Below are positions 7,855-12,943 of a stretch of DNA of 64,000 nucleotides, in pieces; the first letter of the stretch is position 1; each line of letters starts with the position of its first letter. The position numbers were made by a program, and so were the translations under genes. The notes below the pieces were generated by a model. It was not told where the DNA came from, made no database searches, and was given only the letters and a program-made list of their open reading frames with translations. The stretch lies in NCBI RefSeq assembly GCF_003018255.1, contig NZ_CP027440.1; one strand, written 5' to 3'. Source of the DNA: Escherichia coli. GTDB taxonomy: Bacteria > Pseudomonadota > Gammaproteobacteria > Enterobacterales > Enterobacteriaceae.

Positions 7855-10179
7855 TTACCAGGTCACATTGATACCAACTACACCCTGTAGCGGATTCTCA
7901 ATGTCGTCACCTTTGGTGTAGTCAAGGCTTGCATATGCTCCCATGTTTTTGGTGATATCAGCCTGTACACCTGCACCCACGCGGAATGCTGCACCGTCAA
8001 TGCTGGCATTGACAGACTCATCACCCAGACGGACTTTGTTGCCATCAGAGAATTCGTTCAGTGCGGCTAGATTCAGATAAGGTTTAACGGTCGCGTTGCC
8101 CACAGCGAAGTCATAACCCACGCGCGTACCGGCCTCACCCAGCACAGAGTTATAGCTGTCAGAATGAACGTCCACGCCGTTGAGTTGATAATCCACACCT
8201 TCCAGAGTCAGAGCAGACAGTTTGGCATATGGCTGAATAAACAGGCCATTACCGTCTTTCCATGTGTAACCGCCTTTAACCATCGCACCAAAACCATTGG
8301 TGTTAAAGTCAGCTTTGATGGTACCGCCACCATTCATCAGGCGAACATCTGCCGTGTTGCTGTAGTGACCAAACTGTGCAGCAGTATCAATGAAGATACC
8401 GTTGTTATACTGGCGGCTCAGGTAAGCGTGGAAGCTGTAACCTTCAGTGTCACCTTTGCTCTGCATGGTACTCATGTCACCTTTCGCAGAAGACATCGCC
8501 ACACCGGCCAGCCAGCTACCATCTTCAGTTATGAAGCGGGTATCACCACCCAGCATTACACCATTTACATCCAGGTCATAGGATGCATTTCCCGCGGTGG
8601 TATGTTTCTGTTTACCGCCAAAGTACTGAATCCATACGCCGCCCTTGTCATTTTCGCTCAGACGGACAGCATCCTGACGGGCGGAGAGCGTGTCAGCCTG
8701 CAGATTAGCAACGTTAGCCGGAGCAGCTGCCATTGCCTGAATCACGGAGCTGGCGTTGGATGCTTTATGCGTGTTTTTTACGAAATAAAAGTTACCATCA
8801 GCTCCCTGTGTCAGGTCATATTGATACAGACCACCTTCCGTTGTGCCTGTGGCTTTTAGAGTGCTGTCTTTGCCGGTAGAAATAAATGCCGTTTGTTCAT
8901 TGATAAGATCCAATGAACCCGCACTGTAAACACGCAAGTCACCGCTCGCTTTTCCGCTGATATCCAGAGTGTTTTCAGAAGAGGCATCAACAATCAGAGT
9001 GCCGTTTTGAGAAACAAACGTGCCAGTATTGACTGTAGCCTTCGTGATATTTACCGTACTGTCTTTTACTGCCAGAGCATCAACAGTTGAGGAACCCGTA
9101 ACATTCCAGACAGACCCGTTTTGCAGAGATACGTTGGCATCTCCTGCCCCTGAAACTTTGCCTTTCCAGACTGAACTATCGGAAAGATTTATATCCAGAT
9201 TACTACCCGCTTTATCGCCGCTATTGAAGGTATAAGCATTACCTTCCCAGTAAGAGCGGGCAACGTTCATGTTTACATTTGTTGTGGTACCGACTGAATT
9301 CTCGCTTTCAGAAAGGGCCAGGATATCAGAGTAGATGGTTGAATCAGCAACAGACAAATTTAAATTTTGCGTTGCTGAACCTGCGCCTTGTGCCGAAGCA
9401 GAGGCATAAATTGTTTGTTTATTATTAGCCGCCCCAATTACTGAGCCATCCTTAATATTCAGGTTGACTGTATGAGTTCCCGTATTATTCCCGGCAATAA
9501 CTATTGCTTCAATCCGACCATTAATAATATTTGAGCCAGCAAGGGTAATGTTGTCGGTTGCATCACCGTTAAAACTATTCAATAAGCTACCCTTTTGAGC
9601 AAAAATTGCCGTGGAGGCGTTGCTGGAACTCTTATTACCTTGAGCATTTATGGTTGTGCCATTAAGCGTGACATTATTTCCCTGGGCCCCTTCCAGAGAT
9701 ATCCCTGTCGCACTACCTTTTTCATTTTTTGCAACGAAATTACCGCCATTAACAACAACATCGCCAGTTGAATCAATGACCATTGCAGTCCGGGCATAGG
9801 TGCCTTCACCTTGAGCTGTGATGGTGGAGCCTGTAGCATTAATCACAACATTTTTGTCACCGCTAACTTTTACACCTTTAACGAATTCTTTATCTGCCGT
9901 TGATTCAGCAGTAATATCATGACCACCAAAAGTAACATTAAGGTCTTTATCTTCCGCATTAATTGTTGCGGCTGTAATCTGTGTAGTACCACTAATAACA
10001 ACATCTTGTTCCAGAGTTGTCTTATCTTTATCCAATGTAACCGGTGTAGTTGATACCGCGTTATCAGCAGCGAATGCTGGTGCAGAAAGAGCCATAACAA
10101 TAGCTGTTGCTAATGCGCTGCGGTAAAATGCCTTACTGTTTTTCATGAAGAAATTCTCCATTCTGGTAACTAATTTCAA
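7855..10179 (-). CDS. AIDA-I-type (type Va) autotransporter adhesin, UpaB/UpaE-like
   Basis: 774-aa ORF; N-terminal signal peptide (ALATAIVMALSAPAFA), long Gly/Thr/Asn/Ser-rich repetitive passenger typical of beta-helix adhesins, C-terminal beta-barrel ending in aromatic residue (GINVTW). Start could be an internal Met (MKNSKAF). Confidence 0.8.
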   Translation of the reverse strand: MKLVTRMENFFMKNSKAFYRSALATAIVMALSAPAFAADNAVSTTPVTLDKDKTTLEQDVVISGTTQITAATINAEDKDLNVTFGGHDITAESTADKEFVKGVKVSGDKNVVINATGSTITAQGEGTYARTAMVIDSTGDVVVNGGNFVAKNEKGSATGISLEGAQGNNVTLNGTTINAQGNKSSSNASTAIFAQKGSLLNSFNGDATDNITLAGSNIINGRIEAIVIAGNNTGTHTVNLNIKDGSVIGAANNKQTIYASASAQGAGSATQNLNLSVADSTIYSDILALSESENSVGTTTNVNMNVARSYWEGNAYTFNSGDKAGSNLDINLSDSSVWKGKVSGAGDANVSLQNGSVWNVTGSSTVDALAVKDSTVNITKATVNTGTFVSQNGTLIVDASSENTLDISGKASGDLRVYSAGSLDLINEQTAFISTGKDSTLKATGTTEGGLYQYDLTQGADGNFYFVKNTHKASNASSVIQAMAAAPANVANLQADTLSARQDAVRLSENDKGGVWIQYFGGKQKHTTAGNASYDLDVNGVMLGGDTRFITEDGSWLAGVAMSSAKGDMSTMQSKGDTEGYSFHAYLSRQYNNGIFIDTAAQFGHYSNTADVRLMNGGGTIKADFNTNGFGAMVKGGYTWKDGNGLFIQPYAKLSALTLEGVDYQLNGVDVHSDSYNSVLGEAGTRVGYDFAVGNATVKPYLNLAALNEFSDGNKVRLGDESVNASIDGAAFRVGAGVQADITKNMGAYASLDYTKGDDIENPLQGVVGINVTW

Positions 10180-10187
10180 TTTCCCAC

Positions 10188-10949
10188 TTATTTATATTTA
10201 TGCAGAGATAAAGCCTGCGTCCCTGCATTTACCACCACGGAATACCTGTTGGTATTTCCGTTTTCACGCAATGTCATGGCATTCGTTGTTTCCAATGCAT
10301 TTCCATCACCGTGAAAATTATTGCTGCTCAGCAGCAGGGCTTCCCGCAATGACATGCTGTCCGGTATTCCCCAACGCTTTTTTAGCGACTGCTCGGCAAG
10401 CCATATCTGTCTTATCCCCGTTTTGAGAAACTGCGCACTGTATTCCCAGCTGTGTCCGGCAAGAAGCAACGACAACACCTTCTTTTGCTTTTCCGGGAAG
10501 CGTTCTGACATGACGATTGTCTTTGTGCGGTTATTCACCTCTTTCATAAAGACAGAGTAACTGTCCATAACTGGCAAAATTTCTGCATGTTTCAGCCCTG
10601 AAAACCCACCAGAGGCATTTGCAATACTGATGACACGCTCTACTGACATTCCTGGTTTCAGTAACCTCAGGTTTTTGAGAACGCCAGAAATACTCACATC
10701 TGGTGGCAGAAAAAAGGGTGCGACGCACAACACCACCACGAATGAGTGATCCCGATAAAATCGGAACCACATTTCAGCGCATTCGGCAGGTCGCCCTGCC
10801 GATATCACGACATTCTGTGGCCTGTGCCGCAATTTATTGCGTAACTCCTCTTCTGTTCTGATGCAGGTAACATTGCCGACAGAACCGGTTGATAGAGCTG
10901 CGAACTGCGCTGGTACAATTCCTGAGGGACAGAAAAGAACGAAACGCAT
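10188..10949 (-). CDS. putative regulator with divergent LuxR/FixJ-like C-terminal HTH
   Basis: 253-aa ORF ending 8 bp upstream of the autotransporter start (operon arrangement); C-terminal segment KVLSLLLAGHSWEYSAQFLKTGIRQIWLAEQSLKKRWGI loosely fits the LuxR HTH pattern. Confidence 0.55.
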   Translation of the reverse strand: MRFVLFCPSGIVPAQFAALSTGSVGNVTCIRTEEELRNKLRHRPQNVVISAGRPAECAEMWFRFYRDHSFVVVLCVAPFFLPPDVSISGVLKNLRLLKPGMSVERVISIANASGGFSGLKHAEILPVMDSYSVFMKEVNNRTKTIVMSERFPEKQKKVLSLLLAGHSWEYSAQFLKTGIRQIWLAEQSLKKRWGIPDSMSLREALLLSSNNFHGDGNALETTNAMTLRENGNTNRYSVVVNAGTQALSLHKYK

Positions 10950-11102
10950 CCTTCCCTCACAGATGTCAGTACGCCAGCACGCTGTACAGGCTGTACAGCG
11001 TGCCTCCCAATCCTGCAGCCCAGAGCAGTAGAAATATTTTGGCTCCTACACTGTAGCGAGTCCGTATGCGCCGCAGTGGGGGGTAGTAACAACGCTGCTG
11101 TG

Positions 11103-11956: not shown

Positions 11957-12210
11957 GGTTTAATTGCCTGAATATTTAATTTTCTTGGAATATAAATCTA
12001 ATTTGTTTGATTTTTATTGTTTTTAATTTTGTGTTATTTAACAGCGCGAGTGAAAACTGATCACTGGTATGACCTTTATGGTTAATCATTTCAAATCATG
12101 GGGTTATTTTACTTTAGCGAGAAATATCAACATGTTATGTGTTTTATTTAATTGAATGAGCTGTTTTTTTATGGAAGAATTGAGGCAAACGTAGGAATCT
12201 GACATTTTGA
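11941..12210. promoter_or_regulatory. candidate invertible DNA switch (phase-variation element) flanked by 12-bp inverted repeats
   Basis: TCAAAATGTCAG at 11941-11952 and its exact reverse complement CTGACATTTTGA at 12199-12210 bracket a ~246-bp AT-rich segment lying between a FimB/E-type recombinase gene and a LuxR regulator gene. Confidence 0.6.
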
Positions 12211-12226
12211 ATCAGAAGGTACTGTT

Positions 12227-12790
12227 TTAACGAGGCTTTTTTTTCCACACCCCTTTAAATCGAGCAGCATTACTGGCTGTGTATCTGACAGTATGCTGAA
12301 TATTTCGATGACCCAGATAATCCTGAAGTAGTCGGGTATCGACACCATTGTCAGCCAGAGCAAATCCACAGGCATGACGTAACATATGAGGATGTGCTTT
12401 TACAGCTAATCCTGCACGTCTTCCTGCCTCACGAATGATCGAAAAAAAATGTTGTCTGCTGATAGGGCGGCGTTTCCGGGAGAGAAAAAGCCAGTCTCCT
12501 TCAACTCCATTTTCAATTAACTTCCTCTGCTTAAGCCACAACTTGATCAAATTATATTCATCAGGAAGAAGAGGATGTGTTGTCGAGAAGCCATTTTTAA
12601 TACGCCGGATATTAAGTTGTTTTCCTGATGCATCAATATCGGATAAACGTAAATCAAGAAGTTCACTGGCCCTAAAACCGTGAATGAAAGCCATCATAAT
12701 TAGACAGCGATTTCTTTCAGGAAAGGACATGCTCTGGGCTGCATCCATCAGCCTGTAGACTTCATCCTGTGTGAGATATTTTCTCGTCAT
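12227..12790 (-). CDS. FimB/FimE-family site-specific tyrosine recombinase (IpuA/FimX-like)
   Basis: ORF 12227..12847; start chosen at ATG 12790 by alignment to the FimB/FimE N-terminus, longer ORF start not excluded; conserved C-terminal catalytic region HPHMLRHACGFALADNGVDTRLLQDYLGHRNIQHTVRYT (R..H-x-x-R..Y). Confidence 0.8.
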   Translation of the reverse strand: MTRKYLTQDEVYRLMDAAQSMSFPERNRCLIMMAFIHGFRASELLDLRLSDIDASGKQLNIRRIKNGFSTTHPLLPDEYNLIKLWLKQRKLIENGVEGDWLFLSRKRRPISRQHFFSIIREAGRRAGLAVKAHPHMLRHACGFALADNGVDTRLLQDYLGHRNIQHTVRYTASNAARFKGVWKKKPR

Positions 12791-12943
12791 ACGCCACCGT
12801 GTACAGTTGTAAAAAAAAGAGGCACACCCAGATAAGTGTGCCTGCAATCAGAACGTTATCGATGTAATTTCATTATCTCATTAATAAGATTTTTTGAATA
12901 GTAGTTCTACGCAATAGATTAAATATGAAATATTTATTGTGCG

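Follow-up and report, generated by a model that had tools for sequence, protein, structure and literature searches.

The 64,000-nucleotide stretch of Escherichia coli DNA analysed here (NCBI RefSeq assembly GCF_003018255.1, contig NZ_CP027440.1), referred to below as the window, carries between ykgH and betA an insert that is identified from its sequence as the pathogenicity island PAI-X. This island comprises the recombinase gene fimX (also ipbA or hbiF), the invertible element hyxS, the regulator genes hyxR and hyxA, and the autotransporter gene hyxB (upaB). An open reading frame (ORF) listing of 5500-15500 places ykgH at 7005-7673 and betA at 13953-15686, with four minus-strand ORFs between them (206, 264, 253 and 774 amino acids as longest ORFs). 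The annotated starts shorten the 206-residue ORF to 187 amino acids and the 774-residue ORF to 763. An earlier note on this DNA had described the order recombinase, switch, 264-residue LuxR-type regulator, 253-residue protein and autotransporter, all on the minus strand. That order is present in the ORF listing, with hyxR, hyxA and hyxB following one another downstream of the switch. The note had also considered that the autotransporter might be a frameshifted pseudogene, but none of the four ORFs contains an internal stop. The main features are as follows.

7782-13861, no strand assigned: the PAI-X island (K-12 alignment, G+C content, RefSeq annotation).
7855-10146, minus strand: hyxB (upaB), AIDA-type autotransporter adhesin of 763 amino acids with no internal stop (PDB 6BEA, TIGR01414, CFT073 identity).
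10188-10949, minus strand: hyxA (autA), 253 amino acids, predicted receiver-like and LuxR-type helix-turn-helix domains (CFT073 identity, AlphaFold2, Foldseek).
11103-11897, minus strand: hyxR (autR), LuxR/GerE-type regulator of 264 amino acids (Pfam GerE, CFT073 identity, RefSeq name).
11924-11956, no strand assigned: hyxR-proximal recombination site, a perfect 16+1+16 palindrome AAACCTGACATTTTGA-T-TCAAAATGTCAGGTTT, with its repeat at 11937-11952 (repeat search).
11937-12214, no strand assigned: the invertible element hyxS, of 278 bp with its two 16-bp inverted repeats counted in, in the majority orientation (repeats, natural inversion).
12196-12228, no strand assigned: fimX-proximal recombination site, with the 16-bp inverted repeat CTGACATTTTGAATCA at 12199-12214 (repeat search).
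12227-12790, minus strand: fimX (ipbA, hbiF), tyrosine-type DNA invertase of 187 amino acids (NCBIfam, CFT073 identity, RefSeq start ATG 12790).

Alignment of the window to the island-less K-12 genome delimits an insert of 6,080 bp (7782-13861). The K-12 ykgH-betA sequence matches the window to 7781 and again from 13862, and GGATAT is found at both junctions. The G+C content of the island is 43.5%, compared with 51% for the whole window. In a megablast search of 5,426 complete E. coli genomes, at least 80% of 7600-13960 was covered in 1,529, and the annotation in those genomes reads ykgH, hyxB (outer membrane autotransporter), hyxA, hyxR (LuxR family), ipbA and betA. The RefSeq neighbours of the hyx genes in near-identical genomes are also ykgH and betA, and ipbA is labelled there as a tyrosine-type DNA invertase 'also known as HbiF and FimX'. 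The encoded proteins are identical to those of strain CFT073 at 187 of 187 residues (FimX), 262 of 264 (HyxR), 252 of 253 (HyxA) and 714 of about 765 (HyxB/UpaB, about 93%). By these protein alignments and the RefSeq names, the locus whose identity the earlier note had left open is assigned to PAI-X, which has also been named the 'UpaB cluster' (PMC3789825; PMC4844996).

The window shares with PAI-X of uropathogenic E. coli (UPEC) UTI89 and CFT073 and of avian pathogenic E. coli (APEC), where the regulators are called autR and autA, the insertion site, gene order, strand, 16-bp repeat, CFT073 orientation and UpaB. Compared with PAI-X of CFT073, the differences are allelic only, namely a UpaB passenger that is 93% identical, a rare hyxS interior allele and a minority form of the betA-side end. 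PAI-X, FimX, hyxS, HyxR, HyxA and UpaB have been named, annotated in RefSeq and studied since 2012. The recombinase-switch-regulator-adhesin module is already published, and the window holds one further allele of it.

The ipuA/ipuB-ipuS-ipuR-upaE locus of CFT073 (Battaglioli 2018, PMC6083910) is built alike, from a recombinase of the Fim type, a short invertible element carrying a promoter, a regulator of the LuxR type and an autotransporter, and FimX also acts on ipuS (PMC6083910). It was rejected as the identity of the present locus on the published ipuS features, the RefSeq names and the CFT073 Hyx identities. The ipuS locus has two recombinases, 7-bp repeats, a 260-bp element and a two-gene ipuR-upaE unit, contains no HyxA-type regulator and lies on another island (PMC6083910), whereas the window has one recombinase, 16-bp repeats, a 278-bp element and hyxA, with every gene a hyx orthologue and with hyx and ipbA as the RefSeq names.

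The 329-bp spacer between fimX and hyxR contains an exact 16-bp inverted repeat, TGATTCAAAATGTCAG at 11937-11952 with its complement at 12199-12214. The longest inverted repeat in 300 shuffles of the spacer was 12 bp. The switch that the earlier note had placed between recombinase and LuxR gene is thus beyond chance, and it is found inverted in strain GPEC1035, where 11937-12214 is the exact reverse complement. GPEC1035 and the intact strain 181.1 have 0 differences over 4 kb of hyxB-hyxR. Natural inversion of hyxS is therefore observed at the population level, on the same island haplotype. Published work describes hyxS as having a 16-bp repeat and being inverted by FimX only (PMC6083910; PMC6458436).

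The state of the switch was surveyed with orientation-specific 551-bp queries against the 5,426 complete genomes. The fimX-hyxS-hyxR region was present in 1,891, with the window's orientation in 1,780 (about 94%) and the inverted orientation in 15 (0.8%). An excised form, detected with a separate junction probe, accounts for 69 (3.6%). The 15 inverted genomes span several allele backgrounds. Six of them, in which fimX is truncated beside IS66-family genes, are naturally locked: in strain RM14721 (locus L007, 5428-8110) and five similar genomes, fimX is a 114-nucleotide (nt) 3' fragment beside the IS66-family genes and hyxS is fixed in the inverted orientation. In strain CUVET18-565 (locus L005, 2745-3958), an IS3-family element lies within hyxS, between fimX and hyxR.

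The overwhelming preference of the assemblies for one orientation, together with natural frozen forms (fimX truncated by IS66, IS3 in hyxS and a 271-bp switch deletion), could suggest that the switch in this strain is also a frozen relic that no longer phase-varies. This is highly improbable, because FimX here does not differ (100% identity) from the CFT073 protein, whose activity has been shown experimentally, because neither the 16-bp repeats nor their flanking half-sites are damaged, and because the same haplotype occurs intact, inverted and deleted. With all its parts intact, the window's switch should be able to switch.

The interior of hyxS (11953-12198) is far more polymorphic than its flanks, with at least 99% identity to the window allele in 19 genomes and 90-95% in 1,737. 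The differences between the window and CFT073 are gathered at the centre of the element (GATCAGTTTTCACTCGCGCTG versus GATTAACTTTCGCCCATATTG), and the repeat-adjacent ends are conserved. When a single genome from each species was searched for the pair of inverted repeats (AAAATGTCAG N240-270 CTGACATTTT), 23 chance-like matches in unrelated taxa and no Escherichia or Salmonella locus were obtained.

The recombinase FimX matches NCBIfam NF007370 ('tyrosine-type DNA invertase') at 250.8 bits, against a cutoff of 221, and its candidate catalytic residues are R40, H135, R138 and Y170. The start at TTG 12847 given in the earlier note is a longest-ORF artefact. The RefSeq start, ATG 12790, is preferred because the extra 57 nt hold a terminator-like hairpin and T-run just 5' of fimX (12820-12843, minus strand) and because the Salmonella-type orthologue of locus L031 aligns 1-187 to 1-187 with FimX. 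At its other end, the fimX stop codon is overlapped by the fimX-proximal recombination site.

Being a perfect 16+1+16 palindrome, the hyxR-proximal site holds the shared half-site in both directions. In some genomes, 280 bp are found where the window has 551 bp. The junction in one of these, strain 104, is a hybrid of both sites (GCTACAAAACCTGACATTTTGATTCAGAAGGTACTGTTTTAACG), with 271 bp lost and the crossover within the 3-nt TCA. The deletion spans from the direct half-site copy in the palindromic site to the fimX-proximal site (12196-12228) and leaves 58 bp between fimX and hyxR. A 44-nt junction probe, not seedable by intact loci, matched 69 of the 5,426 complete genomes, all at 100% identity (loci including L003 and L040-L044). 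The identical junction occurs on three island haplotypes, compared here over about 4 kb of hyxB-hyxR.

Window-type haplotype: deletion strains 13P477T, 2009C-3133 and APEC E14033, with 0 differences from intact 181.1 and inverted GPEC1035.
CFT073-like haplotype: deletion strain BCE049, with 7 differences from CFT073.
Third haplotype: deletion strain SA186, with 75-88 differences from all window-type and CFT073-type sequences.

Strain 104 was left out of this alignment; it agrees with the window-type strains in its junction and in all four protein accessions. Because the same junction is found on three haplotypes, the pattern suggests recurrent, irreversible site-specific excision, which would remove the candidate hyxR promoter described below. 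As the palindromic site is almost directionless, recombination of the two sites by FimX could end either in inversion or in the irreversible loss of 271 bp, and switch-less lineages could arise repeatedly in this way. No description of the excision allele was found in the accessible literature, which lacks the two most relevant papers.

The orientation of the switch in the window is probably OFF. This assignment is made because the orientation is that of the CFT073 reference, in which an inversion signal was seen only under FimX overexpression (PMC6458436); because hyxS was reported as locked OFF in recombinase-null derivatives (PMC6083910); because 1,780 of the 1,891 genomes share it; and because a promoter-like site points away from hyxR. 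This site, a candidate switch promoter of the form TTGAAT-17 nt-(TGg)AAGAAT at 12152-12180 on the plus strand, points at fimX and is the top sigma-70-like site in a position weight matrix (PWM) scan. The same position is the best in the switches of the window, CFT073 and L032, a diverged locus with a 277-bp switch, in which the counterpart is TTGAAA-17 nt-(TGa)AAAAAT. After inversion the candidate promoter would be directed at hyxR and lie about 65 nt before the start codon of that gene. The best PWM candidate for the window's own orientation, TTCACT-17 nt-CAAAAT, was rejected, being located in the polymorphic centre of the element and degraded in CFT073. The switch of the Salmonella T1 antigen is OFF in all but one deposited genome (PMC11294581). 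A call by homology to that switch was abandoned, as the two interiors have no detectable similarity.

A further observation concerns the hyxR leader (11885-11975, minus strand), in which the palindromic recombination site would fold as a 15-bp hairpin in RNA. An outer helix, in which the switch-interior AUAUUCAGG pairs with the start-codon region, is predicted as well (minimum free energy -29.1 kcal/mol, z = -4.4). This outer pairing would change upon inversion of the switch.

The first gene behind the switch encodes HyxR, in which a Pfam GerE (PF00196) helix-turn-helix was found at residues 135-181 (E 3.9e-6). The 253-residue product of the second gene, HyxA, had been called LuxR-like in the earlier note; this description agrees with its predicted fold and finds no counterpart in sequence profiles. 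HyxA and 8 homologues (down to 28% identity) had no match in Pfam or NCBIfam, a profile search of PDB sequences with HyxA gave nothing relevant, and BLASTP detected no similarity between HyxA and HyxR. An AlphaFold2 model of HyxA built from a 9-sequence alignment (predicted local distance difference test, pLDDT, 77; predicted template modelling score, pTM, 0.72) has a linker helix between a (beta/alpha)5 domain and a four-helix bundle. The helix-turn-helix region has a pLDDT above 90, and the last ~45 residues are modelled at low confidence. A Foldseek search of the PDB with this model gave 32 matches at E 1e-3 or better, nearly all of them full-length NarL/FixJ-class regulators. The top matches were FixJ, RcsB, VraR, StyR, DesR and LiaR, with E values down to 2.7e-6.

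The receiver-like half of HyxA has no phospho-acceptor Asp. Strand beta-3 ends in VVISAGRP, where V-I-S-x-G-R-P is the family consensus, and C-P-S is found after beta-1 in place of the acidic pair, with no Asp at either position. Judged from the model, HyxA would not be a canonical two-component response regulator; no kinase gene is annotated in the island. The HyxA family is tiny, with 29 cluster representatives among 1.84 billion proteins.

Even in relatives with protein identities of just 31-71%, hyxR, hyxA and an autotransporter gene remain syntenic. At two other loci, L035 (7182-9207) and L036 (6343-8380), a hyxR-like (55%) and a hyxA-like (41%) gene form a pair without recombinase or autotransporter, and both pairs are followed by a CaiF/GrlA-family regulator gene. 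The contig that bears the L036 pair also carries plasmid genes for ParB and Rep3. The occurrence of such pairs at L035 and L036 points to a regulator pair that is a mobile unit in its own right.

The last gene of the island encodes the autotransporter UpaB, which binds fibronectin and glycosaminoglycans (PMC6488583). Residues 26-487 match the UpaB passenger of PDB 6BEA (E 4.9e-248), and a complete TIGR01414 beta-barrel domain covers residues 364-763. The 774-residue form, which begins at TTG 10179, is again a longest-ORF artefact, and the RefSeq start is ATG 10146 (763 amino acids). This ATG stands 9 nt after a GGAG Shine-Dalgarno sequence and opens a classical signal peptide, MKNSKAFYRSALATAIVMALSAPAFA, as read from the sequence. 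In the diverged loci L032 and L034, the first residue of the autotransporter aligns with residue 1 of the 763-residue form. With this start, the gap between the hyxA stop at 10188 and upaB is 41 bp. The 8-bp gap from which the earlier note had argued for co-transcription is therefore a start-codon artefact. A terminator-like hairpin was found 3' of upaB, at the ykgH-side edge of the island (7752-7784, minus strand).

At the opposite edge, about 1 kb between fimX and betA (12848-13861) is free of annotated genes and has a very high A+T content (26.6% G+C at 13001-13500). The betA-side island end (13540-13861) is found in just 86 complete genomes and is a minority variant of the island edge. No Rfam family matched within 7000-14000 at E 0.1 or better.

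The regulation of this system has been described in two sets of studies. In the first, FimX inverts hyxS and thereby toggles hyxR (PMC6083910; PMC8777976; PMC3789825; PMC6458436), which is the sole published target of hyxS (PMC8777976; PMC3789825; PMC6083910). [quoted passage not shown] In the second, carried out in APEC, the upaB promoter (PupaB) was activated by AutA (HyxA), this activation was cancelled by AutR (HyxR), and both proteins bound PupaB (PMC4844996). The idea of the earlier note that the regulators control the adhesin is supported by the action of AutA and AutR on PupaB. The known logic, in which AutR cancels the activation, is not one of switch ON meaning adhesin ON.

A PAI-X phase switch of FimX, hyxS and HyxR with UpaB downstream is the best explanation of the locus, and a very probable one. 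FimX, a tyrosine recombinase of the FimB/FimE type, would recombine the two sites that share the 16-bp inverted repeat and so flip the 278-bp hyxS. According to the published work, hyxS would carry the promoter of hyxR, and hyxR would be expressed in one orientation only. HyxR and HyxA would be orphan, atypical NarL/FixJ-like regulators that both bind the upaB promoter, with HyxA activating it and HyxR cancelling that activation. Their influence would extend to hmpA, the gad acid-fitness genes, the K1 capsule and the length of O-antigen chains. UpaB is a surface beta-helix autotransporter. Phase variation would thus act on a regulator, and the adhesin would be one of its downstream and probably indirect outputs.

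The model of the earlier note was different, with hyxR, hyxA and upaB as one operon transcribed from the switch promoter, so that ON turns on both regulators and the adhesin. The conserved hyxR-hyxA-autotransporter synteny is in keeping with such an operon, as is the lack of an intrinsic terminator-like site in the hyxR-hyxA gap (10950-11102) and the hyxA-upaB gap (10147-10187). The term 'hyxRAB operon' has been used (PMC11294581; PMC12922286), and in Salmonella the orientation of the switch decides genes beyond STM0717 and STM0718 (HyxA-like) (PMC11294581). Furthermore, hyxRAB was strongly up-regulated in one strain lineage, the Kapi1 lysogens of E. coli MP1, in every medium tested; that report offers no cause for this and never mentions inversion (PMC12922286). 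A clonal difference in hyxS orientation between MP1 stocks would explain this up-regulation. However, reverse transcription PCR in APEC DE205B gave no product spanning any of the three intergenic gaps, and the authors regarded the genes as four distinct transcription units (PMC4844996); the population was probably mostly OFF. In the same work, deletion of autR raised upaB about 37-fold, which is the opposite of co-induction, and PupaB was an independent, AutA-activated promoter in vitro (PMC4844996). As the 8-bp spacing has also proved to be an artefact, a single operon is unlikely.

The separate transcription units reported for the four genes (PMC4844996) are in keeping with a switch that controls hyxR only, in line with its published target. 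In that case upaB would be set by its own promoter, HyxA and global factors, and the genes would be grouped through co-inheritance of the island and not by function. In Salmonella the recombinase, the switch and a HyxA homologue are retained, with a polysaccharide cluster in place of the autotransporter, and the plasmid copies of the hyxR-hyxA pair also stand without an autotransporter. On the other hand, HyxR binds PupaB and blocks activation by HyxA (PMC4844996), so that a switch-driven change in HyxR should reach upaB, and the autotransporter stays beside hyxR and hyxA in at least three diverged relatives. So complete a separation of switch and adhesin is somewhat less probable even than the operon.

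The orientation of hyxS may set the display of UpaB via HyxR-HyxA antagonism, possibly with inverted sense, ON leading to more HyxR and hence less UpaB. The accessible literature does not report the level of upaB as a function of hyxS orientation. The combined proposal, that orientation sets UpaB in this manner and that FimX resolves its sites either as inversion or as irreversible 271-bp excision, is put forward tentatively, as a possibility on the doubtful side of even.

Several points weigh against the phase-switch explanation as laid out here. A stringent scan for the sigma-70 consensus gave no promoter in hyxS in either orientation, which makes the promoter call weak. Transcripts of all four genes were present in wild-type DE205B at roughly the level of dnaE (PMC4844996), indicating that hyxR is not silent in all wild-type cultures. 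The AutA/AutR paper names neither FimX nor HyxR, and in the accessible literature no paper contains both nomenclatures. Since the AutA/AutR and FimX/hyxS studies never cite each other, the chain from switch through HyxR to UpaB is a synthesis of this analysis, which we infer from the two together.

Among related switches is the type 1 fimbrial switch fimB/fimE-fimS-fimA; FimX shares its invertase subfamilies (NCBIfam NF007370/NF007371) with FimB and FimE. Both fimS and hyxS are invertible promoters whose assemblies are strongly biased to one orientation. The fimS element is 314 bp long with 9-bp repeats and drives a structural operon directly (PMC11294581), in contrast to hyxS, where the first downstream gene encodes a regulator. 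The hyxS repeats were reported to align poorly with fimS (PMC6083910; PMC6458436).

The Salmonella T1-antigen switch is arranged as STM0716, switch, STM0717/0718 and T1 genes (PMC11294581), and the metagenome-read contig L031 has the gene order of this locus. The L031 recombinase is 72% identical to FimX, the core repeat TTTTGAATC is shared with PAI-X, and a HyxA homologue (38%) lies behind the switch; the OFF state predominates in deposited Salmonella genomes, as it probably does for hyxS. Unlike PAI-X, the Salmonella-type locus has a galactofuranose-type polysaccharide cluster and no autotransporter, and only a 73-residue ORF stands in the place of hyxR. The interior of the L031 switch has no detectable similarity to that of hyxS.

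As a finding, one more allele of the known PAI-X system carries little weight. The useful outputs are the corrected upaB and fimX starts, the census of switch states and the excision allele, and the inverted lineage with IS66-truncated fimX (L007 type) could serve as a ready-made locked strain. If hyxS orientation does act on UpaB, two literatures would be united, that of FimX, hyxS and HyxR and that of AutA, AutR and UpaB. The palindromic hyxR-proximal site would provide a mechanistic reason why the switch can destroy itself, which bears on the stability of phase-variable virulence regulators in extraintestinal pathogenic E. coli (ExPEC) and APEC.

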